From an uncultured Planctomycetia bacterium (GTDB lineage: Bacteria > Omnitrophota > Gorgyraeia > VGKH01 > JBHPFN01), in assembly GCA_964406665.1 (NCBI GenBank), contig CAYOSQ010000001.1, positions 7,412 to 71,411 on the forward strand: DNA of 64,000 nucleotides. The letters are read 5' to 3'. How positions within the stretch are numbered: position 1 is the stretch's first letter; every line of letters begins with the position of its first letter. The notes beneath the pieces are model-generated. The model had not been told where the DNA came from and searched no databases. It saw only the letters and a program-made list of their open reading frames with translations. Made by a program: the position numbers and the translations under genes. Below are positions 7,499-29,890 of the stretch, piece after piece.

Positions 7499-8486
7499 CT
7501 TCTTCGCTGTAAACTATCTGAACTACGGCTCCTTCCTCTGAAGAAATAATATTGGGCATGATGGTAATTTTGACAAACTCATAATCATTAGTGAAATTCA
7601 AAGTATAGGTCTGATAAAATGCTTTATCTAAATCCCTGGAACCGCTGAAAGGAAAACGAAGCTTTCCTAATTTAAATCCTTTTTTGCTGCCTGACATCTT
7701 CTTATATTTATCCAGCATATCTCCTGCCTTAAAAGAACTGGTTAAATCCCAACCCTCGAGCTCCATCATCCTTTCATAAAATTCCAATGCTTCATCTAAA
7801 GAGAGTTCAGTAGTGTAAGTAACATATGTTTGTTTTCCAATGTTCATGTTGGACAATCGCACACTATCAGGTGGACGAGGAACATCTGATAAATCTTCCC
7901 CCTCTAAATCTTCTTTGGGCATATCAAAAAAAGTGTCTTCTGTTGACATGGGCAGTTCATCTAAGTTGGCAACGCCAATGGGAAGAAGATATTTAGCAAT
8001 ACCAACATCTGTGCCGTCATCAGCAGCAGTTAAAGCTACTTCAACTACTAGCTGATCTTTCTTAAACTGCATCCTGCGTATTTTGCTTCTGGGAAGTAAT
8101 TCCATAACTTTATCTTTAATGTTTCCACCTTTTAATAAAGACGCGTTTTCCGGCTTAGCTATTGACTCTGGTGGAACCATATCAGGCATTTTTTCATCTA
8201 AAACATTATCAAATTCTTCGTCTCGGAAAAAATCACTGTAATAGTTTGCAACATCGAAACGATTATCTTCACTTTTGTATACAACTCCAGAGACATCTTG
8301 ACCTCTTAATTTAAGAGTAAATGTATCTATCTTTTCACTGTTCTCTGGTGCCGGCACAACAAAATCAATACCAACCTCATCTTCAGCCCAAACAGAAGAT
8401 AACAATAAAACAAGTGTCACTACAATAATGACACCCGGATAAACAAACAAATTACTTTTTTTGAAATATTTTCTATGTACCATCAT
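7479..8486 (-). CDS. Hypothetical secreted/periplasmic protein (N-terminal signal anchor) inside the Tad cluster
   Basis: 335 aa ORF with N-terminal hydrophobic segment VIIVVTLVLLLSSVWA. Same strand as the cluster and overlaps its neighbours by a few nt. Confidence 0.45.
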   Translation of the reverse strand: MMVHRKYFKKSNLFVYPGVIIVVTLVLLLSSVWAEDEVGIDFVVPAPENSEKIDTFTLKLRGQDVSGVVYKSEDNRFDVANYYSDFFRDEEFDNVLDEKMPDMVPPESIAKPENASLLKGGNIKDKVMELLPRSKIRRMQFKKDQLVVEVALTAADDGTDVGIAKYLLPIGVANLDELPMSTEDTFFDMPKEDLEGEDLSDVPRPPDSVRLSNMNIGKQTYVTYTTELSLDEALEFYERMMELEGWDLTSSFKAGDMLDKYKKMSGSKKGFKLGKLRFPFSGSRDLDKAFYQTYTLNFTNDYEFVKITIMPNIISSEEGAVVQIVYSEEGDMFGL

Positions 8487-9906
8487 CCCATTCTATCTCT
8501 TCTATGCCTGCTTCATAAAGATGTAGTTCAGTATTAAAATAATCTTCCCAGTGAGATATGATATAGGCAATGCCGATAGGTGCAGCTAACAATGTAAGGA
8601 ATATACCCCAGAGATTATCGGCATCCCATAAAGTCGGCTGAATAGTAGAAGTCCTTCCTCCGGGATAGCTTTCTACAAAAACCCGTGAGGAAGACTCGGC
8701 ATCAATTTGCTCCAACATAGGATCAGAATTACCATAGCGGAAATTCCATAAACCTAAGTTTTCTCCCTGCTTGTACCTTTGCACTTTAACCAATATAGGA
8801 CTGTTTTCTACCTGCCACTGTTGACCATCCATACCACCTTCGCTTGGATCTTTAAACTTCAGGCCGAAAGCAATGGATTTAATTAGCAACCTTCCTATTG
8901 TTGCCTCGGCACCGGCAAACAACCCTGCGATAATTGGTGCAAGCGGACCTGCCCAACCACACATGGCCAGCCAAGTAGGATATCTTGTTACAAATATATA
9001 GGCCCAAGCTAAATTAGCAGCCATATCCTGAGGTGCACCTAAATCAACTAAATCCAAAATGTACAACATTCTCATAGAAATTACACTTACTTCTACCCAG
9101 TTATCATAATCTCTCCAACAGCCATCATCCAGGCCGCCCCCCAAACAAGCTTGTTGATTTCCTCCAGAATCATCAAAACTGTTATGCATTACCCAATCAT
9201 CAGCAGCAACAGACCATTGCCACTCCCAACCATAGCCGTTTATCGGCATGGGGTCGCCTAAATCTGCTGAGGGGTCGTCAGTTTCTCCAAAAACATCTTC
9301 AACCCAAAACCCAGTTTTTGAATGAGACATAAATCTGGAAAAGCCGTTCATTCCATGCTCTTTAGCGTCAGGGCTTATACCAGCTATGTATTCATCATAT
9401 GATGCATTGCTGGCAGCCTTACCCGATCCTGCAAGAAAATCTTCATAGGTAGGCCTAGGTTCATCAACGCCTACATTGTTAAACGCATACTGTATGGCCG
9501 CCTTTCTGGCTCTTGCCCAGGCCATCTGAGAATCCCAACCAGCTTTTGCAAGCTTTGATAAATTGGAAGACATTACCGTTGCCAATGTTGCTATAGCAGT
9601 AATAAGATTTCCCGGAAACGGGATAAGAAGAAGCTCTAATATAATAGCTACACATTTTATTATATTCTCACCACACATTAAGTCGCTGGTAAGACCATAG
9701 CTAAGCAACTGACCTGTCATAGTGCTAGCTGCAGAGATTGACCCTGCATCAGCAGCATTGGATACATCGGTTTTAAACAAGGCTATCTGACCTACGTTTA
9801 CGGTAATCATTACCATAACGATTACAACGCAGAGAATCGCAATCAGAAAAGGAAATATCTGACCTGATTCATACTTTGTTTTGTCTTGGGAAAACTTAAT
9901 AAACAT
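8473..9906 (-). CDS. tadG: TadG-like pilus-assembly protein (TadE/G-like N-terminal domain)
   Basis: N-terminal GQIFPFLIAILCVVIVMVMITVNVGQIALFKTDVSNAADAGSISAAS matches the TadG pattern (TM helix followed by an NAADA(A/G) motif). Confidence 0.5.
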   Translation of the reverse strand: MFIKFSQDKTKYESGQIFPFLIAILCVVIVMVMITVNVGQIALFKTDVSNAADAGSISAASTMTGQLLSYGLTSDLMCGENIIKCVAIILELLLIPFPGNLITAIATLATVMSSNLSKLAKAGWDSQMAWARARKAAIQYAFNNVGVDEPRPTYEDFLAGSGKAASNASYDEYIAGISPDAKEHGMNGFSRFMSHSKTGFWVEDVFGETDDPSADLGDPMPINGYGWEWQWSVAADDWVMHNSFDDSGGNQQACLGGGLDDGCWRDYDNWVEVSVISMRMLYILDLVDLGAPQDMAANLAWAYIFVTRYPTWLAMCGWAGPLAPIIAGLFAGAEATIGRLLIKSIAFGLKFKDPSEGGMDGQQWQVENSPILVKVQRYKQGENLGLWNFRYGNSDPMLEQIDAESSSRVFVESYPGGRTSTIQPTLWDADNLWGIFLTLLAAPIGIAYIISHWEDYFNTELHLYEAGIEEIEWDDGT

Positions 9907-9924: not shown

Positions 9925-12123
9925 TTATTCCGGAGGATCAGGACATTCATCCGGCCAAGATGGATCATCCGGATCAGGTATTGCTCCCGGACACGGTGGA
10001 TAATCATTTTGACACAGAACATTACAACATTCTAGCTTCTCCGGTTCATGATTTGTAGCATAGTGAGCGCAACAATCCTGACACTCTCCAACCAAGCCTA
10101 CGCATAAACTTATACATTCAGCCTGACAATAAGGCATTATTTCACCGCCTACAACACATCCTTCATCCCATCCTGCATCTGCAGGATCAAAACAGTGGGG
10201 GCATTCATCCTGCAGCTCTCCGCCGCCTTCTCCAAATTCTGCGATTTCTGAAATACAACGCTGCTGACAACCAGAGTGCGTTTCTCCTATAAAACAATCA
10301 GCAGTAGTATAATCACAATATCCATCGCCGTCGTCATCAACCCAGTCCACATCACAACATTCTCCTATAGCAACAATTTTTGCTTCTAGTTCTGTCCTGT
10401 TATATAGTAACCCATCTGGTTCATCATGTATTACGTGCCAAAGACGTCTGCGCAGTTCTTCCAGACCACACTGTCGACCGCCTTCACACTGTGGCGGCAT
10501 TTCTGCTCCTTCGCAATCCTCATCGCAAAAATCATCTGGCTGGTAACAATCTCTGCCCCAAGTATTACCCATGCATTCAACAATATTGTCTACCCAAGGA
10601 TGAACATAATAATTCTGTGGTCCTGGTAAGCTATCCCACCATGGAGTATATACTCCGTGGCTTTCTGTTTCATGCATTACTCCGAACTCGCAACCATAGA
10701 AAAATCCTTGAGCATTTTCCCGACAACAGAAACTCTGGCAACATTCAGTCAAATATCCTGGCCCAGCTCCTGTGGCAATACAGTCGGCTTTACAAGGAGG
10801 CACGTTTACTGTCCACATACAATGACGGTAGTAATTCGGGTTTGCGGCATTAGATGTAAGACATCTTCTCAAGTCCCAACAACGCCACCAGTCAGAACCC
10901 GTGTATCCTCCAGGGTTAGGTGAACAATTATTCCGTAATCGGTTTTCGGTAAAATTATCACAACGGTTATCTACACATTCATCTGTTCTATCAGGAATAC
11001 AATCATCCCAACAATCCTGCCACGCCTGTCCCTCAAGGCCATCACAGTCAATTGTACATTGATCCTCTGCCCAATCATCACAGCGATCTAAACAACGGTC
11101 TAAATCGTACACATCTTCACAATGGTCTCTACAAGGGTCTATGTTTGGTACAACACAATCTTTCTGGCAACGCAACTCTGTGTAAAGATCACAGCCGTTA
11201 GCTCCCTCAAGTCCGTTCCATATTCCACCACGAATAGAATTGGCTTCATTTATCATGCGATTAATCTCATCAACCATCTGTTCCCAGTCATCAACAATAC
11301 CAGCAACAATTATAGGACACTCTGCTGCAGCAATTTCATCTAAACATGCATCCATTTCATTTCTATTTTCATATGCAGCATCATTACAACAAGCATAAAT
11401 CGCATCTCTTCTTGCGGCAATCTCATTTCTTCTGGTTACAAGCTTATCTGCTTCTTGATCTATTTTTCTTGCCGAATCTTTAAGCTTTCTGGCTGTTACA
11501 CCAAAGCCTGCCCACCAACAAAGCTCCCACCAATCGTCGCATTCTTCTGCCTGCTCTCTTAATTCATTAGCTTCGTGTCTCATAGCATTAATTGCATCGT
11601 TAAGAGAGGCTATCTGTCCGTTAAAAGATGCCATCTTGGGATCGATTGATTTATTACACAAACATCTATCATAACAAAGGCATCCGGTCACAATCCAAAC
11701 ACCATCTATCTCTTCAAAACAATCAGGGTTAGCATCTATACATTCATTTCTACATTCCTCTTCGGCATCTGCAAGACCTATAGGTTGAAGAACAAATGAT
11801 ATTTCTTGATCTGTTCTTCCTGCAAAAACCCAATCATCGGTTATGTCCAGGGGCGCTGCAGGATCAATAGTGGGAGAGCCCAAATAAGCAGTATCGTTAT
11901 TGAGGACTCCGTAAGAATCTTTATTCGCTGCAACCATGCGGGTATCTTGATATTCATCCTGGCGCTGGGCAAAGTTTGAGGTAAACCAAAGCCAGATACG
12001 CGTAATACCGATTGCTAATGCCAAAACAACTATGAAGGAAAAAACAAAACCCAGGATTGACTGACCGCGTCTTATTCCTGGGGGTTTAAAGAAAATTTTT
12101 CTAGAGAAAGATTTATTTGACAT
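9925..12123 (-). CDS. Giant Cys-, Asp/Glu- and Trp-rich protein with an Flp-like leader (paralog B, 732 aa)
   Basis: After the leader the N-terminus is identical to paralog A for about 55 aa (GQSILGFVFSFIVVLALAIGITRIWLWFTSNFAQRQDEYQDTRMVAANKDSYG), and the DDWWELCWWAGFGVTARKLKDSA block is shared. An AAAGGGG RBS precedes the start. Confidence 0.6.
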   Translation of the reverse strand: MSNKSFSRKIFFKPPGIRRGQSILGFVFSFIVVLALAIGITRIWLWFTSNFAQRQDEYQDTRMVAANKDSYGVLNNDTAYLGSPTIDPAAPLDITDDWVFAGRTDQEISFVLQPIGLADAEEECRNECIDANPDCFEEIDGVWIVTGCLCYDRCLCNKSIDPKMASFNGQIASLNDAINAMRHEANELREQAEECDDWWELCWWAGFGVTARKLKDSARKIDQEADKLVTRRNEIAARRDAIYACCNDAAYENRNEMDACLDEIAAAECPIIVAGIVDDWEQMVDEINRMINEANSIRGGIWNGLEGANGCDLYTELRCQKDCVVPNIDPCRDHCEDVYDLDRCLDRCDDWAEDQCTIDCDGLEGQAWQDCWDDCIPDRTDECVDNRCDNFTENRLRNNCSPNPGGYTGSDWWRCWDLRRCLTSNAANPNYYRHCMWTVNVPPCKADCIATGAGPGYLTECCQSFCCRENAQGFFYGCEFGVMHETESHGVYTPWWDSLPGPQNYYVHPWVDNIVECMGNTWGRDCYQPDDFCDEDCEGAEMPPQCEGGRQCGLEELRRRLWHVIHDEPDGLLYNRTELEAKIVAIGECCDVDWVDDDGDGYCDYTTADCFIGETHSGCQQRCISEIAEFGEGGGELQDECPHCFDPADAGWDEGCVVGGEIMPYCQAECISLCVGLVGECQDCCAHYATNHEPEKLECCNVLCQNDYPPCPGAIPDPDDPSWPDECPDPPE

Positions 12124-12164: not shown

Positions 12165-13085
12165 CTAAAAATTAGTATCCCACGTTCGGTTTATTATAAC
12201 ACGATTATCGGGATTGTTTATAGTATTTGGATCATATTTTATTCTATTGTCATTAGTATCATACCAGGCTCCCTGAGCAAGATCTTGCGGATCCAATAAT
12301 TCCCAATCACCTTCAGCCGGAGAACCATCATCTGCATCGTGTTGCGATACAGATGTATCTCTGCGCAAAAAAACTGTTGATTCAATATTCTCACTTAATT
12401 CCATACGCTGCGTATTAGAAATTCTTGCCGGTCCCTCCCCAGCGGGCAGCTGATGTTTTCTCGAGGTTGAAGTAAGCTGTGTATGCTTAGCTGTAACATC
12501 TCTCCAAACAGTAGAAGGAACTTTCGACCAAGTGTCGTCTCCCCCTGTAGGATCGGTTGCTGCTTTGGGGTAGCGAGTTAACATTACATCGGGGTTGCCT
12601 ACGCGTGCTGTTTCCCAATCATGCGTGCCCACAAACTGATTGTTGACTTCGTAATACGAAAAAGATCCTTGTATTGTCGAACTATCATTGTCTTCTTTTT
12701 TATTATGGCATCCATGTTCATCATGCTGGCAACCAGCCATACCTTTCTGCCACATAACCGATGCAGATGCAGTTAAGGTAGATGGTTGGCTTTCACCAAA
12801 ATTTGCTAAAGCATTATAAAAACGGTTGTCTTTCTTTAAAGTATAAGAAACATTTGCATTTCTCTGATATGATTTCTGCAAAGCCTTGCGGAATGCCTCC
12901 TGTTTTAATGCTTGCTGTGCATCTATGCGTTGTCCGTATGTGATAAGTGAAGAAAATGCAACAAGAACTAAACTTCCTAAGATTGCCAGCTCTGCTGCTG
13001 CCTGGCCTGTGCGGAAAATAAATGCAGAATATTTGTTTCTTTTCTGATTCGGCTTTAATATCTTATGCGTTCTTCCAAACCTCAT
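12165..13085 (-). CDS. TadE/TadF-like pseudopilin (prepilin-type, leader G|QAAAEL)
   Basis: RTGQAAAELAILGSLVLVAFSSLITYGQ matches the TadE-like N-terminal domain pattern. Confidence 0.55.
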   Translation of the reverse strand: MRFGRTHKILKPNQKRNKYSAFIFRTGQAAAELAILGSLVLVAFSSLITYGQRIDAQQALKQEAFRKALQKSYQRNANVSYTLKKDNRFYNALANFGESQPSTLTASASVMWQKGMAGCQHDEHGCHNKKEDNDSSTIQGSFSYYEVNNQFVGTHDWETARVGNPDVMLTRYPKAATDPTGGDDTWSKVPSTVWRDVTAKHTQLTSTSRKHQLPAGEGPARISNTQRMELSENIESTVFLRRDTSVSQHDADDGSPAEGDWELLDPQDLAQGAWYDTNDNRIKYDPNTINNPDNRVIINRTWDTNF

Positions 13086-13111
13086 AAACTCTCCTAGCTG
13101 AAGTTGTTAGT

Positions 13112-13579
13112 CTAAAATTCTGGAGCTGCAATATCAAATTCACCCTGATCTAAAAATTGATCCTGCTGAATTAACATTTCGTAACCGTCACCAGTAGATG
13201 CTGTAACCCTATTCATCAATACTTCATTATCATTAGGATCAAGGAACGAGCTTTTTAAACCACCATGAGCTTCATGCGCTACTTGCTTGCGTTTCTGGGC
13301 TGTTCTGGTCCTTGTCCTGGTGTTATCAAATTCATCTCCGTCAGCAAGTTCTTCAAGTAATTCTTCTCCAGTATCAACCCTCCAGGGCTCTCCAATTCCC
13401 CAGCTTGACCAGAGCACTAAATCAGAAGTCTGATTAACCTTCTGCTGCAGGGAATTTGAAAGCGGCCTCTGAACTGTAGCAAGGACTGCCAGAACCACTA
13501 CAAACACCGACGCCCACATTATAATGCTTTGGCCTTTTCTATTTAATATTTTACCATCCATAGGAGAAAATTCCTCCAT
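13112..13579 (-). CDS. Prepilin-like protein with a variant leader (G|QSIIMW), acidic C-terminal part
   Basis: NRKGQSIIMWASVFVVVLAVLATV hydrophobic helix after a Gly-Gln processing-like site. Confidence 0.4.
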   Translation of the reverse strand: MEEFSPMDGKILNRKGQSIIMWASVFVVVLAVLATVQRPLSNSLQQKVNQTSDLVLWSSWGIGEPWRVDTGEELLEELADGDEFDNTRTRTRTAQKRKQVAHEAHGGLKSSFLDPNDNEVLMNRVTASTGDGYEMLIQQDQFLDQGEFDIAAPEF

Positions 13580-13583
13580 TTTT

Positions 13584-13910
13584 TTAATCTAGACCAGCTA
13601 ACCCGTCTACAGCTTCCCTGCGATCAAACGTAGTAGATGAATTAGAAAAAGTTAATGTAACACCGTCAGGAGCTCCGTTTACTCCCATATAACTATCTGT
13701 ATTAGTAGTAACTGTAGATTCTATTAGTGCGGTTGTATGTCTTGGGGAATATTGTGACGGGCTTATTGTATCGGCTTCCTGCTTCAGTCTTCCTGAATAT
13801 GCTCTCCTGACATAAGTCGCCATAAGTAAAAGAGCGCTGAGGACAAGCGCGATCAATACCGTATACTCTAATAACCCTTGACCTTTACAGTTTCTCATTT
13901 TTCTTAACAT
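13584..13910 (-). CDS. Flp/TadE-type prepilin (G|QGLLEY)
   Basis: CKGQGLLEYTVLIALVLSALLLMATYVRRAYSG: the class III (Tad-type) signal motif G/xxxxEY followed by a hydrophobic helix. Confidence 0.55.
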   Translation of the reverse strand: MLRKMRNCKGQGLLEYTVLIALVLSALLLMATYVRRAYSGRLKQEADTISPSQYSPRHTTALIESTVTTNTDSYMGVNGAPDGVTLTFSNSSTTFDRREAVDGLAGLD

Positions 13911-13945
13911 AAGCTTTTCCTTAAAATAGTTATTCTTAAGCTCAA

Positions 13946-14419
13946 TTAATCAATTTCACCTAAATCAAAAGGTGCTGGAAAATCTTCCCAGACGGTTGAG
14001 TTATCAACTATATCTTCAGTCCTATAGAGCTCCCCTATGGCAGAGTCTGTTTGTTTTCTAATGTCAGTATCAAATCTATTGCCAACGGAAGCTCTATAGG
14101 AATAAATACCTTTGTCCGCAACATACTGCGGAGTATAACCAAAACCATCAGGCAAAAATTCGGATATATGCCCGGCGCCCTCAGCTGTAGCAGTTTCTTC
14201 TGCTACTTCCTGATCGCCGATCATTGTCCGCGCAACTCTTTCGCTGGTGGCAGTGGGGGAAAACTGTTCCCCCATCCTTTCTGCTGCATCATTCATGCTA
14301 CCTGAAAATCCTCTTTTAACAATTGTCTGCATAAGTAGCAAAGCAGAAAGCACCACCGCCAAAACAATTGCGTACTCTAACATACTTTGAGCTTTACGTT
14401 TGCCTTTTTTAAAGGACAT
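13946..14419 (-). CDS. Flp/TadE-type prepilin (A|QSMLEY)
   Basis: KRKAQSMLEYAIVLAVVLSALLLMQTIVKRGFSG. Confidence 0.55.
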   Translation of the reverse strand: MSFKKGKRKAQSMLEYAIVLAVVLSALLLMQTIVKRGFSGSMNDAAERMGEQFSPTATSERVARTMIGDQEVAEETATAEGAGHISEFLPDGFGYTPQYVADKGIYSYRASVGNRFDTDIRKQTDSAIGELYRTEDIVDNSTVWEDFPAPFDLGEID

Positions 14420-14464
14420 CTTCTCTCCTGCTTTTCTTTTCTAAACTGCTTTTAACAATCCCTA

Positions 14465-14953
14465 TTATTCCCAAAGAGCTTCAGGATTGTCCCATTCATC
14501 ATCTAAAGCCTCATACTCAGCTGATGTATGATCTTCATGAATAGTTGAATCAGTTGTCTGCCTTGTATCTGTTGAATAACCGTGCCCTACACGAGAACTA
14601 ATGCTGTTAGCGCCTCTATCGATTGCACCTACAATGTCATAATCTGCAACTCCAGCATCAGCAGCAGCATCAGCGATCAAGTCTGTCATAAGATCGTCTG
14701 AAGAATCAATACCACCTTCTTCAACGATAATATGATCTTCACCTTCTGCCATTGCTCGTGTTTCTTGTATAACTGAATTAGAAACTGAGTATTGATCACC
14801 CATTCTTGAAGCAGCATCATTAATACCACCTGAAACACCACGCTTGACTATTGCCTGCAAAAGTAAAAACGCGGAGATGACAACTGCTAAAAGAATAGCA
14901 TATTCAATCATTGATTGTGCTCTTCTATTCTTATACAGCTTCATATTTCTCAC
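14465..14953 (-). CDS. Flp/TadE-type prepilin (A|QSMIEY), paralog of 13946-14419
   Basis: NRRAQSMIEYAILLAVVISAFLLLQAIVKRGVSGG. Confidence 0.55.
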   Translation of the reverse strand: MRNMKLYKNRRAQSMIEYAILLAVVISAFLLLQAIVKRGVSGGINDAASRMGDQYSVSNSVIQETRAMAEGEDHIIVEEGGIDSSDDLMTDLIADAAADAGVADYDIVGAIDRGANSISSRVGHGYSTDTRQTTDSTIHEDHTSAEYEALDDEWDNPEALWE

Positions 14954-14999
14954 CTTCCTTAATGTTTTATGCTTTTATTAAATAATTTAAAAATCTCTA

Positions 15000-15383
15000 C
15001 TATTCTCCCTCTTCTACTAATCTGTTAATATCAAGTGTAGTAGTTTCAGTCGCGGTCTCGTTATGCTTCATTTCCGCACCACCCTTTAACCTGATCTTCT
15101 CATCCGTATAACCGGTTTCTAAGCTAGTGGTATGGCGGACCTGCTCGCTTACTGCATAGACATCCTGCATTGTGTCAAAACCTGCTTCTTCCATAGCATC
15201 ATCTAGCTCTGAAGTACCTGCTCGCAGCATAAACTCAACTGCTCTATCCTGCTTTACGTTTATGGCGTTCTTCAATGAGACTGAAAGAGCGCCAGCGGCA
15301 ATCGCAATTACAGCGGCAAAGATTATGCCGTATTCTGCAGTCGATTGCGCCCTTTTGCTTTTAAATAATCGTCTCAAAAACAT
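15000..15383 (-). CDS. Flp/TadE-type prepilin (A|QSTAEY)
   Basis: KSKRAQSTAEYGIIFAAVIAIAAGALSVSL. Confidence 0.5.
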   Translation of the reverse strand: MFLRRLFKSKRAQSTAEYGIIFAAVIAIAAGALSVSLKNAINVKQDRAVEFMLRAGTSELDDAMEEAGFDTMQDVYAVSEQVRHTTSLETGYTDEKIRLKGGAEMKHNETATETTTLDINRLVEEGE

Positions 15384-15447
15384 GTTTTATTCGCCTCCTT
15401 AAATTACTATATATTTTATTTTCAATTTCATTGTTTTCACAATTTGC

Positions 15448-15663
15448 TTACTCTTCCTGAAATACACCCATGCCTAAGTCATCAACAGTACTTTTTAATG
15501 CTGTACCTGTTTTAGAATAGGCACCTTCGACTGATTCTTTAATTGAACCACCACCGATACCGGTAAACAAAACGGCAACAATAGCAGCAACAACCACGCC
15601 GAGAATAAGGGTATACTCCAATATACTCTGACCTGATCTTGACGCTGTTCTCATATTATTCAC
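15448..15663 (-). CDS. flp: Flp-family major pilin candidate (71 aa, G|QSILEY)
   Basis: SRSGQSILEYTLILGVVVAAIVAVLFTGIGG. Its small size and canonical G/xxxxEY motif are typical of Flp pilins. Confidence 0.6.
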   Translation of the reverse strand: MNNMRTASRSGQSILEYTLILGVVVAAIVAVLFTGIGGGSIKESVEGAYSKTGTALKSTVDDLGMGVFQEE

Positions 15664-15673
15664 CTCCCTTCCT

Positions 15674-15907
15674 TTATCTATTATATGTCATTTCTTCCTG
15701 AACACGTTTTAAATATCTATTATATGTCATTTCTTCCTGAACACGTTTTAAACGCGCATTCACGGAACGATATACATACCGATGTGTAATAATAATCCCG
15801 GCTGCGACTACAGCGAATAGTAATGTAAATTCGATAATACTCTGTGCTTTTCTGCATTTATTAAGCTTAATTAGTATCATTCTGTAATCATCACCCCCCC
15901 TGCACAC
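15674..15907 (-). CDS. Flp/TadE-type prepilin-like protein (A|QSIIEF) with a duplicated 13 aa C-terminal repeat. The true start is probably the internal Met near 15880.
   Basis: KCRKAQSIIEFTLLFAVVAAGIIITHRY. The C-terminus reads RVQEEMTYNRYLKRVQEEMTYNR, matching a 39 bp tandem DNA duplication. Confidence 0.45.
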   Translation of the reverse strand: MCRGGDDYRMILIKLNKCRKAQSIIEFTLLFAVVAAGIIITHRYVYRSVNARLKRVQEEMTYNRYLKRVQEEMTYNR

Positions 15908-16143
15908 TGAGTTACGGTTCTAAAATATTGATCGAATATTCCTCTTTCTCCTTCTCCACCTGTTGACTTACCTACATCAACCCAGAAATAAACTGCAATC
16001 AAAGCAATAATAGCAAAACTGACCAGTGCAACATATTCTAATAAAACCTGGCCGTTTCTTTTCTTTGATTTGCCTGAAATTCTTTTTAAAGACTTTTTAA
16101 AACTCATAATCAACTCTCCAAAAATAAAAACCGGATTACTCAA
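15877..16143 (-). CDS. Flp/TadE-type prepilin (G|QVLLEY), the first gene of the pilin array
   Basis: KKRNGQVLLEYVALVSFAIIALIAVYFWV. Confidence 0.5.
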   Translation of the reverse strand: MSNPVFIFGELIMSFKKSLKRISGKSKKRNGQVLLEYVALVSFAIIALIAVYFWVDVGKSTGGEGERGIFDQYFRTVTQCAGGVMITE

Positions 16144-16330
16144 AAACCCATAACGGCCTTTCGGTAACCCGGCTAATTTCTATCTCGCTCTTGACCCTGT
16201 GAAAGCGATAAAATATAAAAAGATGTAGCGAGCGAATCCCGTGGCTTTGCGCATCCGCCGTTTTTGATCGACGGAATTGCCGTTTCGCTGCCGTAAAATT
16301 TCCAAATTGTATTGTGCTACTTGCAAGTAA

Positions 16331-16358
16331 AATATAACACAGTATGAGCAAAAGTCAA
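16331..16358 (-). promoter_or_regulatory. Candidate sigma70-type promoter for the prepilin array (TTGACT-16 nt-TATATT on the minus strand), with a roughly 190 nt leader
   Basis: Reverse complement of 16331-16358 reads TTGACTtttgctcatactgtgtTATATT. It lies in the 247 bp gap upstream of the first pilin gene. Confidence 0.35.
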
Positions 16359-16390: not shown

Positions 16391-18790
16391 TTAACCGATT
16401 TTAAAGAATAATCTACTAGAATTATTATCGCGTATTCCGGATTCGTTGACTCTTCTAATGGCATACAACAAATCATTGCGCAGCGCATAATCTTTAGCAG
16501 GTAATAAAGAAACTATCAGCATATCATTAATTCTTCTTACCTTCCCCGGGAGGCTGTAAAACTGCTCTTTCATCTTAAGCAAATCCATTCCTTTGTAACT
16601 AAATGGAAAATAATGATTTACAGCATAGTTATGCAGCCTGCTAAGCAAAAACTTTATGTTTTCTTTTGCATCTGTTGTTGAACAGTTCAGCTGATAATCG
16701 TCTTTTTTCTCTTCAACTAAATCTGTTTTCTGCTTCAACATGAAATTATGCATAGTAAAAGGATCTTGTTTCTTCAACAAATCTTGATATGTTTCCTCTA
16801 AATTAGGCCAACGCATCACATATTTACGTATTATTTCTTCCGGCGAAGACTTTTCTTCCGATATATTAGTAAGTATGCCGATACGCGGCGAACTAAACTC
16901 TGAATCCCTCAAGAATATAACTCTAAACGTTACCCTATGCGTTACGCTTAACTTAGGAAAATCAACTTTAAAATTACTATAGAATATTTGTCTTCCTAAC
17001 TCTTCTATAACAAAAGTTTTGATAGCTTTAGTATCAAACGGCTGAAACGATTTTGCCTGAGCCTGCCAGGGCCAAAACCCGATAATAAAATTTCTTTTTA
17101 AGGCTGATGGTACATCTTCGCGATAGAGCTCTTCTTCCTTCGGACTTAAGGCAATTACTGATTTTATTCTTTTTTCGATGGTGTCTTCACATAAAGCTAA
17201 GAATTCAAACGTAATCTTTGAAAACTCTTTAAATCCTGAAATATTAAAAATATTGATTGGGCTGCTGTTATTAACAAATGTCCTTTCAATATAATGTTTT
17301 GTTGTGCTAATGCTGGTATTAACAACAGCCGGTATGTTACTACCTGACCAAATAGTTTTCCATTGCCCGTCGATAAAAAAAACAGAGTTATCATTTAAAA
17401 TAAACTTTATTTTATTTATTTGGGAAAATCCTTTGGCTATATGATCATGCAGGGCAAGAGCTACTTCTTTTTTTGCCATGAGATTCTGCATAAAACTCTG
17501 GAGATCTGAACTGGAAAACTTTCCTAAAGAATCGTTTAGCAACCACAGACCTTTACCTTTATACAAATCTATCTCTTTTAGATCATTTATCCCAAAGACC
17601 GAATGATAAATTAACGAATCTGTCTTTGCTGCATAGCTTTTATTTTGCAGTGGCCCGCGAAGTATTCCATCAAAAGTATTGGCATTAAATACCTCCCACT
17701 CAGCCGCCTTTAGAAAAAACGTGCCCACCGAATCTATTTCTTCATCATCACTTATCTTAACCGGAATTATAGGTTCCTCAGGGACTAAAACCTGAATTTC
17801 TTCTTCTTGCACAGGAGGCTCTATTTCTTTTTCTTCTTCAGCTTTTTCCGACGACAAGATAGCAGCTGGCTCAGGCTGCAAGTCTTCCTTCGCTTTAGGT
17901 TCAAGAATTGGCTTTTGTTCCTCTACTTCCTGTTCAGGAATAACTATATCTTCTTTTTCTTGTCTTACCTGTTCAATTTCTTCAGCTGCTTCCTGATCAA
18001 GTTCAGCCTCAGAGATTTCCTGCTCTGCGGAATCGCTCTCTGGAGTTTCCTGCAGCTGTTCTAATGCAGGATCTGGTTTTTCGATTTCTTTTGGCAAGTC
18101 TATTTCTTCTACTGGTGGCTTAACATCAGTCTCTTCAACAGGTGGCTGTTGATCTATCTGAGCTGGGGGTTCCTTGATATCTTCAGGCTCTGGTTCAGGT
18201 TCTCGTTCTGGCTCTGGCTCAGGCTCAAGCTCTGTTTCTTTAGGCTCTTCTAACTTAGGAGCATCTTCTTCTGCAATCTGCTCAATCTTTTCTTGCGAAG
18301 CAGAAACATCAGGTTTTTTAATCTCAGGCTCTTTAATTTCAGGAATCGGCGCCAAAGGCTCCTGAACTTCTAATTCTTTCTTTTCTTCTGGTTCAATAAG
18401 CGGAATGATATCTTCTGCCGGTATGGCTTTTTCGACTTTTTCTTCCTCTATATTACTGACTACTTCAGCAGGCTTAATAGGTGGGGGGGTCTCTTCCAGA
18501 GATTGAACATCTTCTTTTTTCTCAATAAGCAAGGATTGCTCATGCCTAGGCAGAATATGAGATTCCTGCTTTGCAGCAGATCTTAAGCCGTTTTGATATT
18601 TAGGCCTGCCTACGCGACTGCTTAATCCGGCTTCTTTTATAATTGAATTTATAGATGATTTGGATGCGGATATTGAGAAACGCTTATTGACCATATCAAC
18701 CAACTTCCTACATCCCAGCTTAGGATTCTGCTGTTTTTGGCTGATAATAAAATTCTTTACCTCGTCTTTAAGCTTATAGACTACGCCCAT
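16391..18790 (-). CDS. Large protein (799 aa) with an N-terminal HTH-like domain, a long acidic Pro/Glu-rich (EP)n low-complexity linker and an uncharacterised roughly 430 aa C-terminal domain
   Basis: The N-terminal KLKDEVKNFIISQKQQNPKLGCRKLVDMVNKRFSISASKSSINSIIKEAGL resembles an HTH. The central segment ELEPEPEPEREPEPEPED is embedded in an about 250 aa E/P/K-rich region. Confidence 0.5.
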   Translation of the reverse strand: MGVVYKLKDEVKNFIISQKQQNPKLGCRKLVDMVNKRFSISASKSSINSIIKEAGLSSRVGRPKYQNGLRSAAKQESHILPRHEQSLLIEKKEDVQSLEETPPPIKPAEVVSNIEEEKVEKAIPAEDIIPLIEPEEKKELEVQEPLAPIPEIKEPEIKKPDVSASQEKIEQIAEEDAPKLEEPKETELEPEPEPEREPEPEPEDIKEPPAQIDQQPPVEETDVKPPVEEIDLPKEIEKPDPALEQLQETPESDSAEQEISEAELDQEAAEEIEQVRQEKEDIVIPEQEVEEQKPILEPKAKEDLQPEPAAILSSEKAEEEKEIEPPVQEEEIQVLVPEEPIIPVKISDDEEIDSVGTFFLKAAEWEVFNANTFDGILRGPLQNKSYAAKTDSLIYHSVFGINDLKEIDLYKGKGLWLLNDSLGKFSSSDLQSFMQNLMAKKEVALALHDHIAKGFSQINKIKFILNDNSVFFIDGQWKTIWSGSNIPAVVNTSISTTKHYIERTFVNNSSPINIFNISGFKEFSKITFEFLALCEDTIEKRIKSVIALSPKEEELYREDVPSALKRNFIIGFWPWQAQAKSFQPFDTKAIKTFVIEELGRQIFYSNFKVDFPKLSVTHRVTFRVIFLRDSEFSSPRIGILTNISEEKSSPEEIIRKYVMRWPNLEETYQDLLKKQDPFTMHNFMLKQKTDLVEEKKDDYQLNCSTTDAKENIKFLLSRLHNYAVNHYFPFSYKGMDLLKMKEQFYSLPGKVRRINDMLIVSLLPAKDYALRNDLLYAIRRVNESGIRDNNSSRLFFKIG

Positions 18791-18953: not shown

Positions 18954-19295
18954 CTACTCGAAGCGCAGCTCATCATCAATCTGAGTCTGGGTTTGGGATA
19001 TTTTTTTTGCAGGTAACTCAACAACCGAATGCGCCTTAAGATAAATTCTGCTTATCTTACCGGGCGACATATCTTCTCTTAATCCAATAACTTTGTTTTT
19101 GCTATCTATAAAAACTGCATCCATATTAAAGCGCATAAAAAAGGTGTGGATAGAATTGCAGCGTCGGATAATAAGGGCTTCGTTTGCTTCTAGCGATTGC
19201 TTGCCCAGAAGACCTTTTGTCCTTGAAAAAAAAGTATCCGCAACTACTACCTTATCTGCTAATAGCGCGTTGCGGGTTTGATTGAAAATTTTCAT
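18954..19295 (-). CDS. DUF192 (COG1430) family protein
   Basis: 113 aa ORF. The FFSRTKGLLGKQSLEANEALIIRRCNSIHTFFMRFNMDAVFID pattern is typical of DUF192. Confidence 0.55.
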   Translation of the reverse strand: MKIFNQTRNALLADKVVVADTFFSRTKGLLGKQSLEANEALIIRRCNSIHTFFMRFNMDAVFIDSKNKVIGLREDMSPGKISRIYLKAHSVVELPAKKISQTQTQIDDELRFE

Positions 19296-19303
19296 GAAAT
19301 AAT

Positions 19304-21457
19304 TTACGGCTTGAAAACTTCTTCAGGGATAATTATGCCACGTGTCTTAAGCTCAGCATAGAACGAAGGAATATGCCCAGTAGGCTTAAACTCACCAAGC
19401 ACCTTACCTTTTTCATCGACTCCGGTCTGATAAAAAGCGAATATATCCTTTAAGCCGATGTGCATTTCATCAAGCATCCCTGTTATCTCAGTAACCTGAA
19501 GCACTTTTCTCGAACCATCTGAAAGTCTTGCGGTATGAACTATGACATGAACAGCAGATGCAATCATTTCTCTAATTGCCCTGATGGGCAACTCGATACC
19601 AGACATAAGTATCATTGAGTCCAGACGTGTTAAAACATCATGTGTGGAGTTAGCATGAACTGTGGTCATGGATCCGTCATGGCCTGTATTCATTGCCTGA
19701 AGCATATCTAACGTTTCAATCCCGCGACATTCTCCAATGAGTATTCTATCCGGACGCATTCTCAAAGAGTTTCTAAAAAGATCTCTAATAATAACTGCAC
19801 CCTTGCCTTCAATGTTCGGCGGACGCGATTCAAGCCTTACCCAATGATCCTGGGTTAATTTTAACTCTGCTGCGTCCTCGATAGTAACAATGCGTTCACT
19901 GCTGGGAACGAAAGTGGAGAGAACATTTAATACAGTTGTTTTTCCGCTTCCCGTACCTCCGGAAACTATTATGTTCTTGCGAGAAAGTACACATGCTTTT
20001 ATAAACTCACCCATGGGGCTACTTAGTGAATCTAAATCAACAAGCTCTTCGACAGTAAAACGCTCCTTGCGAAATTTTCTAATAGTTAAGGTAGGCCCTG
20101 TTAATGCCAGCGGAGGGATGATAGCATTAACGCGTGAACCGTCAGGAAGACGTGCATCAACCATGGGAACAGACTCGTCTATTCTTCTGCCTATAGGAGC
20201 AATTATACGCTCTATGGTTGTCTTTACATGAGCATTAGAGGTAAATTTCTTTGGGGTCAACTCCAGCTTTCCTTTCCGCTCAACATAGACTTCATTCCTG
20301 TTGTTAACCATAATGTCTGTTATCTCTGAATCTGAGAGTAGCGCCTCTAAAGGACCTAGGCCTAAAGCCTCATCCAATATATCTTCCACAAGAGCACGGC
20401 GCGCTTCCCCAGAAGAAATAAATTTTCCTGATTCCTCGGCAAGCAAGTTTGAAACTAAATTACCAGCCTTTTTTCTCAACTCCTCTTTGGCTGCATCAGA
20501 AAAAGCTTTTATATCGAGCTTCTTAAGATTTAACTCTGCTATAAGACGCTTATGTATACGGGTTTTTAACATAATCATCTTATCTATTTCACTAACTACA
20601 GTAGGTGAAGCTACGGGTTCAGCCATCCCAATTTTTTGCCAAAATTTATTTATCTTACCAGACGTCTTGTCTCCTTTTTCAGCAGCGCTGAAATCTTGAT
20701 GCTCAATAAATATCGAACTGTCGCTTATAAGTTTATTCGCGAAACTATCTATAGTTTTACTTACTTTGCTGCGAGCATTAACCATGCTAACCGGTAAGCC
20801 TCTGTTTACCGCCTCCATAACAACTTTGCCCTCTGATGGAATCTGGGTAATAATTTCACTTTTTAAAGCTGCCTGTATTTCATGTAAACCAATACTACTT
20901 AAACTTTCTGATCTGTTTAAAACAACTTTGATCATATTAACCGGGATAAGCATTGATTGCAGGGTATTTATTAAAACCTTAACCTGATTAATTGAAAGCA
21001 CGTCGGGGTTTGCTACTAAAAGAACAAGGTTTGCCTCATTTAAAATGCTTAACATTAAATCAGTAAAGCCACGTCCTGCATCAACAATGATATAATCATA
21101 GTTGGGTCTTAGAATATCGAACACGGCTTTTATATGAGATGGTTCAACCTGATGGGCCTGTTGCGGCCTGGCAATACCTGACAAAAAATCCATCCCGGAA
21201 GAATGCTTTGCTACAAAATCTCCAAGAACTATATCTTTTTTTGCGGCTTTAATCTCCGTAATAATATCAAGCATCGTCTTTTTAGGAGATAGGTCTAACA
21301 TTCTTCCCATGTCCCCGACTACTTGATAATCTAAATCGGCAAGAAGGGCTCTGACGTTTCTATCCTTAGTTAATGCAGCAGCTAAATTAGCCGCGAGAAA
21401 CGTTTTACCAACGCCTCCTTTTATGCTAAGAATAACGATTGTTTTTGCCAACGCCAT
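19304..21457 (-). CDS. tadZ-tadA: Fused Tad pilus ATPase: an N-terminal TadZ/CpaE-like ParA/MinD-family domain joined to a C-terminal TadA/CpaF secretion ATPase
   Basis: The N-terminal deviant Walker A ILSIKGGVGKTFLAANLAAAL (ParA/MinD-like, as in CpaE/TadZ) is followed by a C-terminal Walker A SGGTGSGKTT. The latter carries surrounding T2SS-E/CpaF-type motifs and the CpaF-like helical N-domain MIMLKTRIHKRLIAELNL. Confidence 0.8.
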   Translation of the reverse strand: MALAKTIVILSIKGGVGKTFLAANLAAALTKDRNVRALLADLDYQVVGDMGRMLDLSPKKTMLDIITEIKAAKKDIVLGDFVAKHSSGMDFLSGIARPQQAHQVEPSHIKAVFDILRPNYDYIIVDAGRGFTDLMLSILNEANLVLLVANPDVLSINQVKVLINTLQSMLIPVNMIKVVLNRSESLSSIGLHEIQAALKSEIITQIPSEGKVVMEAVNRGLPVSMVNARSKVSKTIDSFANKLISDSSIFIEHQDFSAAEKGDKTSGKINKFWQKIGMAEPVASPTVVSEIDKMIMLKTRIHKRLIAELNLKKLDIKAFSDAAKEELRKKAGNLVSNLLAEESGKFISSGEARRALVEDILDEALGLGPLEALLSDSEITDIMVNNRNEVYVERKGKLELTPKKFTSNAHVKTTIERIIAPIGRRIDESVPMVDARLPDGSRVNAIIPPLALTGPTLTIRKFRKERFTVEELVDLDSLSSPMGEFIKACVLSRKNIIVSGGTGSGKTTVLNVLSTFVPSSERIVTIEDAAELKLTQDHWVRLESRPPNIEGKGAVIIRDLFRNSLRMRPDRILIGECRGIETLDMLQAMNTGHDGSMTTVHANSTHDVLTRLDSMILMSGIELPIRAIREMIASAVHVIVHTARLSDGSRKVLQVTEITGMLDEMHIGLKDIFAFYQTGVDEKGKVLGEFKPTGHIPSFYAELKTRGIIIPEEVFKP

Positions 21458-21471: not shown

Positions 21472-23097
21472 TTAATTATTGTTTCTTCGAAAAGCAATTG
21501 GAACTTCTACACGAAGCTCATCTGCCCGCAACTGATAAGGAAAGGAAGGATAAGGATCCTCATTTTTTACTACCCCTAACGCAGCCTCATCCAATACCGC
21601 GTGTCCAGAAGATTCCTGGACGACAACTTCTTGCAATGAACCATTATCTGAAATAAGCAGGCTTAACCTTACAGTGCCTGACCAGCCTAATTCTTCTGCG
21701 TCTGCAGGATAGTATGCTGCGTTTAATATTTTAGTTTGCACCATCTGAACATATTCATTAAGCAGTCGCTGAACATCTTCTTGAGAAAACTCAACTGGTT
21801 TCTCTTCTTTTGACTCTTGAGCCTGAGCTTTTTTAATTTCTGAAACTATCGTTGGAGTAAGGGTGATAAATAACTCTACATTTCCTCTTTCTCCCTGACC
21901 GCCACCCATTTTAGTTTCTTTCTTTCTGAACAATGCTCCAATAATCGGAATGTCGCCTAAGAAAGCATTCTTTCTTATATCTTCTTCTAATTTTTCCTTA
22001 ATAATTCCACCGATAGCTAATGTCTGACCATTATCCAAATAAATCTCGGTTGAAATATTACGCTTGGTTAAAGGAAAGGCTTTAGCGGATGGAGCATTGG
22101 GGTCTCCGATAGTAATCGCGTCTCCGATTTCACTTACTTCAACATTAAGCCCAACATGAATTCTACCATCATCAATTGTGGGCTGAATATTAAGTTTGAT
22201 TCCATATTCCTTATACTCGATACTAGTTGAAGAAGCTCCACCTGATTGAACAGCGGTGCTGAACATCGGCTTCTCTCCGCCTACCAACAGCTCTGCTTCT
22301 TTTCCACTTGAGCATGTCAATCTCGGACGAGAAAGAATTCTCGCCTTACCTTCCTGCTCTAAGAAATCAACTGTGGCAGTAAGTGCATTTCTTGTCCAGT
22401 CGGATACATGGAATAATGCACTAAACCCTGTTACTGCGTTTGCAGTAGGGCCAGATGCTTCCAAAACAGAAAACTGTCCCGGCAGAGTAAACCCTAACGT
22501 CTTAGTTGCATCTCTATCCAATTCAAGAACCTGAACTTCTATATCAATAACGCCTTCGTCTTTAACTTGAAGGAGATCTATAGTCTGAGGGAATAATTCA
22601 CCTAATGCCAGCTCAATTAATTCTCTTTCCTCCTCGGTGGGAACATCTCCCAAAATAAGAATTCTACCTTCTTCGTGGTTAGCCTTTGTGTAAACATTAT
22701 CAAGCTTAAGCGGTTTCAACAAATTGTCAACGCGCCTTTTGGTGTTAGTCATGTCTGCAGTTAATACTCTAATCTCAAATGAGCGTTCTCCTAATTCATC
22801 CCAGACCACCAACGTTGTAGAACCTGCCCCCTTACCAGCTATGCTAACTGCATCTTCAGATACCTTGGTAATATCTGCAATCTGCGGATTACCAATAGCT
22901 ACTCTAGTAGGAGATTTTATGGGAAGAACTTTTATCTCCCCAATATATACTATTTCTTCGTTGTTTAAATATTCTTCAAAAGATATATCCTCAGCTGAGA
23001 TGATGACAGGTGAAACAAATAATAAAGAAATTAAAAAACAGCTGATGATATTTCTTCTGAAATGTTTCATTGTGTGATTCTTATATAAGCTCTTCAT
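21472..23097 (-). CDS. rcpA: Flp pilus secretin RcpA/CpaC with an additional C-terminal TonB-C-like domain
   Basis: Secretin C-domain FLGDIPIIGALFRKKE...VELFITLTPTIV. The last roughly 100 aa (AAYYPADAEELGWSGTVRLSLLISDNGSLQEVVVQESSGHAVLDEAALGVVKNEDPYPSFP...VEVPIAFR) match the TonB C-terminal domain pattern. Confidence 0.75.
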   Translation of the reverse strand: MKSLYKNHTMKHFRRNIISCFLISLLFVSPVIISAEDISFEEYLNNEEIVYIGEIKVLPIKSPTRVAIGNPQIADITKVSEDAVSIAGKGAGSTTLVVWDELGERSFEIRVLTADMTNTKRRVDNLLKPLKLDNVYTKANHEEGRILILGDVPTEEERELIELALGELFPQTIDLLQVKDEGVIDIEVQVLELDRDATKTLGFTLPGQFSVLEASGPTANAVTGFSALFHVSDWTRNALTATVDFLEQEGKARILSRPRLTCSSGKEAELLVGGEKPMFSTAVQSGGASSTSIEYKEYGIKLNIQPTIDDGRIHVGLNVEVSEIGDAITIGDPNAPSAKAFPLTKRNISTEIYLDNGQTLAIGGIIKEKLEEDIRKNAFLGDIPIIGALFRKKETKMGGGQGERGNVELFITLTPTIVSEIKKAQAQESKEEKPVEFSQEDVQRLLNEYVQMVQTKILNAAYYPADAEELGWSGTVRLSLLISDNGSLQEVVVQESSGHAVLDEAALGVVKNEDPYPSFPYQLRADELRVEVPIAFRRNNN

Positions 23098-23105
23098 TTT
23101 CCTCC

Positions 23106-26840: not shown

Positions 26841-26853
26841 TAATTGCCACTAT

Positions 26854-29782: not shown

Positions 29783-29890
29783 TATACCATAGAAATAATT
29801 CTGTACATAGAAAAATTTAAGGGAAAATATGTGGGGGCTTCGATGGTTTTATTATTTTAAGAATACAGTTAAATTATGTTTTTTCTTATC

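Follow-up and report, generated by a model that had tools for sequence, protein, structure and literature searches.

The nine consecutive genes at positions 12165–16143 of the window (the whole 64-kb stretch of DNA that was analyzed), together with four genes located downstream of them, are likely to constitute an operon encoding the subunits of a Tad-type (type IVc) pilus machine in Omnitrophota. The evidence consists of leader motifs, gene context, conservation across related loci, an Rfam match and the architecture of structural models. Judging from the sequence, a c-di-GMP-I riboswitch with predicted ligand binding probably controls the transcription of this pilin operon. Omnitrophota are uncultured, ultra-small and probably predatory or parasitic, and the Tad locus ranks among the few conserved candidates for contact with a host in this phylum.

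Pilin-like genes and their leader motif

The nine ORFs were confirmed at their predicted coordinates, and all of them are co-directed on the minus strand. As the original prediction held, prepilin-like sequences with a basic leader, Gly or Ala, Gln and then a hydrophobic helix are really present there: in 9/9 ORFs, a short, basic and hydrophilic leader of 8–27 aa ends in Gly or Ala directly before about 20 hydrophobic residues. When the window was scanned in six frames for [GAS]Q...E[YFL] ahead of a hydrophobic stretch, 8 matches were obtained, all of them inside the array, with a mean of 0.04 matches expected by chance in shuffled sequence. Gln at +1 is the sole residue invariant over the nine ORFs (9/9), and it is shared by the four additional proteins. 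Glu at +5 occurs in 8/9 ORFs; p8, whose motif reads GQSIIMW, has Met at this position. The motif variants named earlier (QAAAEL, QSIIEF and QSTAEY) were found, but that list was incomplete, since QVLLEY and QGLLEY also occur and the ninth ORF carries GQSIIMW.

Based on RBS positions and independent gene calls, four ATG starts were revised, to 16107 (76 aa), 15880 (68 aa), 15654 (68 aa) and 14944 (159 aa). Because of these shifts, three Flp-sized genes (p1–p3, mature 56–60 aa) replace the single one (71 aa, 15448–15663) that had been proposed. The first of them, p1 (15877–16107), encodes a prepilin-like protein of 76 aa with G↓QVLLEY (here and below, the arrow marks the predicted cleavage site) and a mature length of 57 aa, and has the RBS GGAGAG; its longest ORF starts at TTG 16143 and gives 88 aa. 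The p2 protein (15674–15880; 68 aa, A↓QSIIEF) is basic (pI 9.9), has a 13-aa duplication at the C-terminus and shares 58–65% identity with its orthologues. The third Flp-sized prepilin-like protein, p3 (15448–15654; 68 aa with an 8-aa leader, G↓QSILEY), has orthologues of 47–56% identity. Its gene carries the strongest Shine-Dalgarno sequence (AAGGGAGGTG), and the exact protein was found on at least 17 contigs. The best candidate for the major subunit is most likely p3.

The other members of the array have mature lengths of 98–279 aa. Four of them are mid-sized pilin-like proteins, namely p4 (15000–15383; 127 aa, A↓QSTAEY, RBS AAGGAGG), p5 (14465–14944; 159 aa, A↓QSMIEY), p6 (13946–14419; 157 aa, A↓QSMLEY) and p7 (13584–13910; 108 aa, G↓QGLLEY, orthologues in 36 loci). 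The tandem paralogues p5 and p6 are 37% identical to each other, and related loci have a single copy. All homologues of p6 (n = 205) belong to Omnitrophota or are unnamed. The pilin-like p8 (13112–13579; 155 aa, G↓QSIIMW) has no Glu at +5, its L016 orthologue reads G↓QSLVMW, and by analogy it may act at the filament tip. The last ORF, p9 (12165–13085; 306 aa, G↓QAAAEL), is a large pseudopilin-like protein. The acidic character ascribed to the mature proteins applies to 7/9 (pI 4.1–4.9) but not to p2 or to p9 (pI 5.4).

The count of nine proved to be too low, as the same leader occurs on four more proteins outside 12165–16143, all encoded on the minus strand, which gives 13 in total. A Cys-rich acidic protein (9925–12123; 732 aa, 63 Cys) begins with RRG↓QSILGF, while its orthologues carry [GSA]↓QSILDF; it is 57% identical to its paralogue, the second Cys-rich protein (5228–7498; 756 aa, RIG↓QSILGF, 62 Cys). 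The TadG-like protein (8473–9906; 477 aa, SG↓QIFPFLI) matches PF13400 Tad with 28.8 bits, over the cut-off, and its leader is kept in orthologues. Finally, p10 (4916–5155; 79 aa, A↓QAMLDY, with Asp at +5) is a fourth Flp-sized pilin-like ORF, situated just upstream of tadB, and its orthologues ([GA]↓Q..LDYV) occupy the same place in the loci L015, L019, L024 and L025. The same window also encodes a second pilus system, with G↓F/V/M-type pilins.

Ala is found at −1 in 4/9 ORFs of the array. It was rightly called unusual in that it departs from the bacterial rule for this residue (PMC4471445), but within the phylum it is normal: of 289 pilin-like ORFs from 37 Omnitrophota loci, 155 have Gly and 130 (45%) have Ala at −1. 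Gly and Ala swap inside orthologous groups; in that of p4, covering 32 loci, Gly occurs in 20 and Ala in 18. Prepilin peptidases accept Ala as a substitute at −1 (PMC2913515). At −2, 77% of the 289 ORFs carry Lys or Arg; Gln at +1 served as the search criterion in the related loci, so these ORFs give no independent count of it.

Many tandem paralogues sharing one N-terminus, and p5/p6 as a recent duplicate pair, could also suggest alternative major pilins for antigenic or phase variation, one being expressed at a time. This is very unlikely, however, as the members vary widely in size, correspond one-to-one by position to their orthologues in other genomes and lie in a locus that is 100% identical among at least 8 independent metagenome assemblies, with no recombination repeats besides one 39-bp duplication.

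Tad machinery, profile matches and structural models

The window holds a Tad locus, in which the genes for the pilins and the TadG-like protein are joined on the minus strand by those for PPIase, RcpC, secretin, fused TadZ-TadA, TadB and TadC. The block 21472–24970 includes, from its upstream end, PPIase (24041–24970), RcpC/CpaB (23106–24041) and an RcpA-type secretin carrying a TonB_C domain (21472–23097). The ParA/MinD-like TadZ is fused to the TadA/CpaF ATPase in a 717-aa protein (19304–21457; T2SSE, 211 bits, and CbiA/ParA domains), and this fusion is kept in 55 Omnitrophota loci. TadB (4052–4906) and TadC (3174–4052) each have a single T2SSF domain. Orthologues and gene order are kept in up to 37 Omnitrophota loci.

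A locus of this type was noted in passing in Omnitrophota as 'T2SS-like'/Tad (West-Roberts 2023, bioRxiv 10.1101/2023.11.21.568195; Seymour 2023, PMC10066038). In the former, the conserved locus is described as 'type II secretion system-like' and located upstream of giant genes. The products of the array may alternatively be pseudopilins of a secretion machine, whose short periplasmic filament would push cargo (the Cys-rich proteins, or giant proteins in other genomes) through the secretin. The many subunits that are not Flp-sized, as with T2SS minor pseudopilins, and the unusual TonB_C domain on the secretin would agree with such a function. We consider it possible but improbable, given a TadA/CpaF-like ATPase with TadZ fused to it, separate platform proteins TadB and TadC, the presence of RcpC and TadG, four Flp-sized subunits and the absence of a giant gene from the window.

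For the Tad-type pilus, the comparison with Flp/TadE HMMs had been set beforehand as a possible refutation, and formally the refuting outcome did occur: no protein reached the curated cut-off of Flp_Fap (PF04964; best 16.9 bits, for p5, vs. 32.2) or of TadE (PF07811; best 13.6 bits, for p9, vs. 22.9). An NCBIfam search gave no match. The nearest profile was the archaeal Class_IIIsignal (PF04021), with 22.1 bits for p4 and 19.2 bits for p7, under the cut-off of 23.7. Among 113 relatives, at E ≤ 0.01, Class_IIIsignal was matched by 30 (best E 6.6e-6), Flp_Fap by 16 and TadE by 4, and the families recurring below the threshold (in at least 3 of the 113 relatives) are all N-terminal pilin families of type IV filaments. 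The motif and size of Flp (mature ~40–60 aa, G↓xxxxEY) were seen in p1 and p3, and in p2 with EF replacing EY. The suggested resemblance of the rest to TadE/TadF applies weakly and only to the 306-aa p9, for whose homologues (n = 130) no Pfam domain is on record; the mid-sized proteins belong to Omnitrophota-specific families annotated as hypothetical. The subunits usually receive this annotation because the curated Flp and TadE profiles miss them. The JGI labels for homologues are 'UPF0333 family' or 'Flp pilin'.

In the structures predicted by AlphaFold2 for p6 (pLDDT 77.5; helix 9–52 and four beta strands) and p9 (pLDDT 87.2, pTM 0.80; helix 12–75 and a large beta domain), an N-terminal helix of 44–64 residues is followed by a beta domain. 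A Foldseek search with the two models found no solved pilin alike. Supported by the full Tad locus, the recurrent sub-threshold pilin families and the helix-plus-beta models, the class III (Tad-type) prepilin assignment was upheld in its core.

No prepilin peptidase (A24 motif, Pfam) was found in the window, and a motif-only scan of the Omnitrophota loci revealed none at a distance of up to 10 kb from the ATPase. In the proteobacterial loci compared, TadV is present, with GGGDVK. The Tad model permits tadV as an unlinked gene (PMC6668835). A locus that encodes no peptidase, and curated pilin profiles that all remain below the threshold, would also suit ordinary Sec-dependent membrane or secreted proteins, with the common N-terminus as a class I signal or anchor. 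This explanation is hardly credible, however: the conserved motif stands before and not after the hydrophobic segment, this segment is interrupted by a charged Glu in a constant place, the motif is confined to the Tad locus, and every profile recurring below the threshold represents a pilin family.

Proposed assembly and comparison with known pili

We suggest the following pathway for the assembly of the Tad-type pilus. On the cytoplasmic side, an aspartic prepilin peptidase, whose gene may lie elsewhere in the genome, would cut off the preprotein leader between Gly/Ala(−1) and Gln(+1). Gln would then be the first residue of the mature protein and, as in Methanococcus, would probably cyclise to pyroglutamate; N-terminal pyroglutamate was reported for M. 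maripaludis (PMC4471445). The TadZ-TadA ATPase, acting on the TadB/TadC platform, would extract the subunits from the inner membrane and polymerise them via their N-terminal helices, after which the filament would exit through the RcpA secretin. The shaft is proposed to be built of Flp-sized proteins, with p3 as the likeliest major subunit, while p4–p9, TadG and the two Cys-rich proteins, several of them without Glu at +5, may serve as minor or tip subunits.

The Omnitrophota locus is a lineage-specific variant of the known Tad system. With the bacterial Tad/Flp pilus (tad of A. actinomycetemcomitans, cpa of Caulobacter) it shares TadA, TadZ, TadB, TadC, RcpA, RcpC and TadG, small Flp-sized subunits with Glu at +5 and Tyr at +6, larger pseudopilins and the arrangement in a single locus. 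However, residue +1 is Gln instead of the bacterial Ala/Val (G↓ATAIEYGL in the proteobacterial loci compared), residue −1 is Ala in ~45%, and 13 subunit genes lie downstream of the ATPase gene in place of ~3–5. Moreover, TadZ and TadA are fused, tadV is absent at the locus and the curated Flp/TadE profiles are not reached.

The archaeal EppA-dependent (Epd) pili of Methanococcus maripaludis (PF04021 Class_IIIsignal, formerly DUF361, UPF0333) have in common with the present locus a leader ending in Gly, Gln at +1, Glu at +5, ~60-aa plus larger subunits and PF04021 as the top profile. The platform is likewise split in both systems, each of its proteins having one T2SSF domain (PMC3875500, PMC6668835). 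The cleavage by EppA needs Gln at +1 (PMC4390842, PMC2913515). In contrast to the Epd system, the host here is a diderm bacterium with secretin, RcpC and TadZ, Tyr is present at +6, which Epd pilins lack, no EppA-like gene was found and the PF04021 scores are just below the cut-off. As for the published Omnitrophota loci, the passages on them in West-Roberts 2023 and Seymour 2023 mention no leader motif, Gly/Ala split, subunit families, missing peptidase or riboswitch; unlike the locus described in West-Roberts 2023, the one studied here is followed by no giant gene in the window.

Tad is considered to derive from archaeal Epd-like pili (PMC6668835), and the Gly/Ala(−1)-Gln(+1) code bears on this proposed origin as well as on the separation of subunits between two pilus systems in one cell. 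We offer as a speculation of rather low probability that the Omnitrophota Tad pilins keep an ancestral archaeal Epd-type code (Gly/Ala at −1, obligatory Gln at +1, pyroglutamate), and that a dedicated EppA-like peptidase distinguishes them from the subunits of the window's second pilus system, which are of the G↓F/V/M type. The phylum would then be a living intermediate in the archaea-to-bacteria origin of Tad, and the c-di-GMP-switched 13-subunit filament, with a giant Cys-rich pilin-fusion tip, would serve these nanobacteria as their organelle for contact with prey.

Predicted riboswitch and promoter-like site ahead of p1

A c-di-GMP-I (GEMM-I) aptamer was detected ahead of p1 at 16160–16291 of the minus strand, with 38.4 bits for Rfam RF01051 against a gathering threshold of 35. 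The margin is 3.4 bits and the full model is covered (positions 1–87); the P2 loop contains a 56-nt insertion. RF01051 was also above gathering (37.9–43.5 bits) in the syntenic loci L005, L012, L027, L042 and L050, and the aptamer core motif is present in L007 and L025; the aptamer is absent in the six other related loci searched. A terminator-like hairpin with a U-run (16117–16174, minus strand) has the conserved 3′ strand of the aptamer (AGCCGGGUUACC) as its 5′ arm and is the predicted expression platform. The folding energy of this hairpin is −26.9 kcal/mol (z = −4.7). Five orthologous loci show the same hairpin and U-run, in L027 with one compensatory change, and the terminator overlaps the aptamer in 6/6 loci (the window and the five syntenic ones).

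The aptamer and the terminator thus appear to be mutually exclusive. Binding of c-di-GMP would hold the 3′ strand of the aptamer, and the terminator would be blocked because the ligand-bound aptamer keeps this strand, so that an ON switch is predicted. Examples of c-di-GMP riboswitches ahead of other pilin genes exist. The leader described here shares with c-di-GMP riboswitches (RF01051) the aptamer in the 5′ leader of a pilin operon and the competition of the terminator with the aptamer. It differs in the P2 insertion, and its ligand binding and direction are sequence-based predictions. The c-di-GMP-I riboswitch ahead of the first pilin gene of this locus is new here. With the subunits defined, p3 named as the likely major one and a probable response of the subunits to c-di-GMP, the locus becomes useful for experiments and offers targets for antibodies, metaproteomics, cryo-ET and riboswitch assays.

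Upstream of the riboswitch, a promoter-like site was found at 16331–16358 of the minus strand (TTGACT, 16-nt spacer, TATATT, extended TG), which is a consensus match alone; over the region as a whole, such sites are no more numerous than in shuffled sequence. It is nevertheless plausible as a promoter because it is placed in the 247-bp gap after a 799-aa gene.

Organization of the Tad locus and its pilin-like genes

Nine consecutive pilin-like ORFs, numbered from p1 (15877-16107) to p9 (12165-13085), were found in the ORF listing on the minus strand at 12165-16143, exactly where the original prediction had placed them. We searched all six reading frames of the window for the pattern [GAS]Q...E[YFL] with a hydrophobic stretch behind it and obtained eight matches, all within the array; shuffled sequence gave a mean of 0.04. 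The motif of p8 (13112-13579) is GQSIIMW, without Glu+5 (the last leader residue is counted as -1 and the first mature residue as +1). Gln+1 was the sole invariant residue in the alignment of the nine, and four of them have Ala at -1.

Start codons were reassigned from the placement of Shine-Dalgarno sequences and from gene calls made independently on public contigs. As four of them moved (giving 76, 68, 68, 127, 159, 157, 108, 155 and 306 aa for p1 to p9), three proteins are Flp-sized, and not only one as claimed earlier. Seven of the nine mature proteins are acidic (pI 4.1-4.9), the exceptions being p2 (pI 9.9) and p9 (pI 5.4). The 3' end of p2 (15675-15752) contains a perfect 39-bp tandem duplication, so that 13 residues (YLKRVQEEMTYNR) occur twice. 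All eight independent assemblies share it, which excludes an assembly artefact.

The array is part of a complete minus-strand Tad locus. The locus starts with genes for a PPIase, RcpC/CpaB and an RcpA-type secretin (21472-23097) whose C-terminal TonB_C domain makes an unusual-looking fusion. They are followed by a TadZ-TadA ATPase, a DUF192 protein (18954-19295), a 799-aa acidic protein (16391-18790) and the nine pilin-like genes. Then come a 732-aa Cys-rich protein (9925-12123), a TadG-like protein (PF13400), a 335-aa protein, a 756-aa Cys-rich paralogue (5228-7498), a 79-aa pilin-like ORF (p10, 4916-5155), TadB and TadC. The ATPase joins ParA-like TadZ and TadA in one 717-aa protein (19304-21457), a fusion seen throughout Omnitrophota, and the alignments with Binataceae (L056), Chloroflexus (L057) and Anaerolinea (L058) cover nearly the whole of it. 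The 799-aa protein is highly acidic and repeat-rich; its N-terminus looks helix-turn-helix-like by eye, with no Pfam match. It is kept in 45 Omnitrophota loci, and the DUF192 protein in 51.

The same leader was found on four further proteins, namely both Cys-rich proteins (G|QSILGF, the bar marking the predicted cleavage point), TadG (G|QIFPF) and the 79-aa ORF (A|QAMLDY), so the locus encodes 13 leader-bearing proteins. The Cys-rich pair are acidic paralogues (57% identical, 62-63 cysteines each) with near-identical pilin-type N-termini, Gly at +5 (Asp in orthologues) and no Pfam domain above the curated cut-off. Possible roles are as tip adhesins or as cargo.

A second, distinct pilin-like gene set with T4aP/T2SS-type leaders (G|FTLPEV, G|VSFVEI, G|MMMLLEV, G|TILIEM) occupies 25137-31235 on both strands. 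It includes two PilX-like Cys-rich paralogues of 567 and 626 aa, in which the first ~75 residues are almost identical.

Family assignment and leader code

None of the nine proteins reached any Pfam curated cut-off. The Flp and TadE profiles stayed below threshold, the best scores being 16.9 bits for Flp_Fap (cut-off 32.2) and 13.6 bits for TadE (cut-off 22.9); Class_IIIsignal (PF04021) gave 22.1 and 19.2 bits, below its cut-off of 23.7. NCBIfam had no match for any of the ten small proteins. A profile of the N-termini gave only non-significant pilin matches among PDB sequences (Geopilin, E = 0.077; PilA, 0.16; Flp, 1.5). When 113 Omnitrophota relatives were scanned singly against Pfam (E <= 0.01), the recurrent matches were all to pilin N-terminal families: Class_IIIsignal (30), Flp_Fap (16), TadE (4), Flp1_like (3) and DUF4244 (3). 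Homologues were numerous for p6 (205) and p9 (130), all named ones being from Omnitrophota; no Pfam domain is recorded for them, and some carry the JGI labels 'UPF0333 family', 'Flp pilin' or 'pseudopilin PulG'. The 71-aa ORF (p3) retrieved only three proteins in a single-sequence homologue search, and no intrinsic terminator was found downstream of it to indicate a major pilin gene with its own attenuation.

The AlphaFold2 models of p6 (helix at residues 9-52, four strands, pLDDT 77.5) and p9 (helix at 12-75, large beta domain, pLDDT 87.2, pTM 0.80) have the predicted architecture expected of pilins. Foldseek found no similar solved structure in the PDB for either model; a MACPF/gasdermin likeness of p9 was rejected, since it comprised long beta hairpins only (TM <= 0.13).

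The closest ATPase relatives, with up to 74% identity, were in Candidatus Omnitrophota genomes. Pilin-like ORFs were collected around the ATPase by the presence of Gln+1. Each of the 37 Omnitrophota loci whose sequence continues downstream of the ATPase contains 2-14 motif ORFs, against essentially none in the non-Omnitrophota loci. Of the 289 ORFs with Glu+5, 155 carry Gly at -1, 130 carry Ala and 4 carry Ser; Tyr occupies +6 in 223, and 77% have a basic residue (Lys or Arg) at -2. Every motif-defined orthologous group contains both Gly and Ala at -1. A mid-sized subgroup in five loci (L036, L038, L043, L048 and L053) has a one-residue motif insertion, [GA]|Q.[IV][SA][AGV]EY, which places Glu at +6 (for example, AQGISAEY and GQSIAGEY).

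In proteobacterial Tad loci recovered by the same search, by contrast, the Flp genes encode G|ATAIEYGL or G|AAAIEYAI and TadV is linked, while one Binataceae locus has G|QTMTEYAL. The Epd pilins of M. maripaludis have Gly-1, Gln+1 and Glu+5 but no Tyr+6 (PMC3875500), and EppA cleavage requires Gln+1 (PMC4390842, PMC2913515). The final residue of bacterial leaders is said to be invariably Gly, with exceptions in archaea (PMC4471445), and Ala is an acceptable substitute at -1 (PMC2913515). Based on this comparison, the Omnitrophota leaders join the archaeal Gln+1 and tolerance of Ala-1 to the bacterial Flp Glu+5/Tyr+6. An origin of Tad from archaeal Epd-like pili has been proposed (PMC6668835).

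No A24 prepilin peptidase was detected in the 64-kb window by motif or Pfam match, nor did a motif search of the Omnitrophota loci reveal one less than 10 kb from the ATPase. This suggests that the peptidase gene is unlinked to the locus, as tadV may be (PMC6668835).

Gene order is kept in relatives (e.g., L015, L016, L019, L024, L025 and L029), and p5 and p6 arose by local duplication of one ancestral gene. Because the identical locus, with 100% nucleotide identity, occurs in at least eight independent metagenome assemblies, we rejected the idea that the array is hypervariable or phase-variable. We conclude that it is a genuine operon of Tad-type subunits and represents a known system in a lineage-specific form. 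One relative, L035 (JAIWAR010000030.1), has an Omnitrophota-like fused TadZ-TadA (54% identity) in a contig binned as a Methanosarcinales archaeon; the probable explanation is mis-binning of a contig from a predator or epibiont, with gene transfer as another possibility.

Tad complexes have been reported across Omnitrophota (Seymour et al., PMC10066038), so this type of locus was already noted. In the available portions of prior Omnitrophota accounts of the locus, we did not find the leader code, subunit families, unlinked peptidase or riboswitch described.

A predicted c-di-GMP riboswitch upstream of the pilin operon

The predicted riboswitch upstream of the pilin operon is new here. Rfam assigned a c-di-GMP-I riboswitch to 16160-16291 on the minus strand (38.4 bits, gathering threshold 35), with the full model covered and P2 enlarged by a 56-nt insertion. 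The element is flanked by a promoter-like site (16358-16331, minus strand), from a promoter scan whose overall count was not above the shuffled expectation, and the p1 start codon (16107). At the syntenic position, c-di-GMP-I scored above gathering in five loci (L005, L012, L027, L042 and L050), and the aptamer core motif was also present in L007 and L025; six other related loci searched had no match. The GEMM-I fold was not recovered when four riboswitch copies were aligned with MAFFT and folded with RNAalifold, and the riboswitch call is therefore based on Rfam.

In the window and the five loci, the conserved 3' strand of the aptamer (AGCCGGGUUACC) doubles as the 5' arm of a strong hairpin with a U-run behind it, and L027 shows a compensatory change in the hairpin. 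This points to a transcriptional ON switch, in which c-di-GMP would hold the aptamer and prevent termination. L005 has another predicted c-di-GMP-I riboswitch with a higher score (58.8 bits) at 5929-6015 (minus strand), on the opposite strand and upstream of the Tad locus. In the window, a gene cluster ~17 kb from the riboswitch encodes a FIST sensor, a histidine kinase with a GAF domain and a GGDEF-domain response regulator, with a CsgG-like lipoprotein gene nearby (33325-37022, plus strand, and 39018-39923, minus strand). This cluster is a possible source of c-di-GMP.
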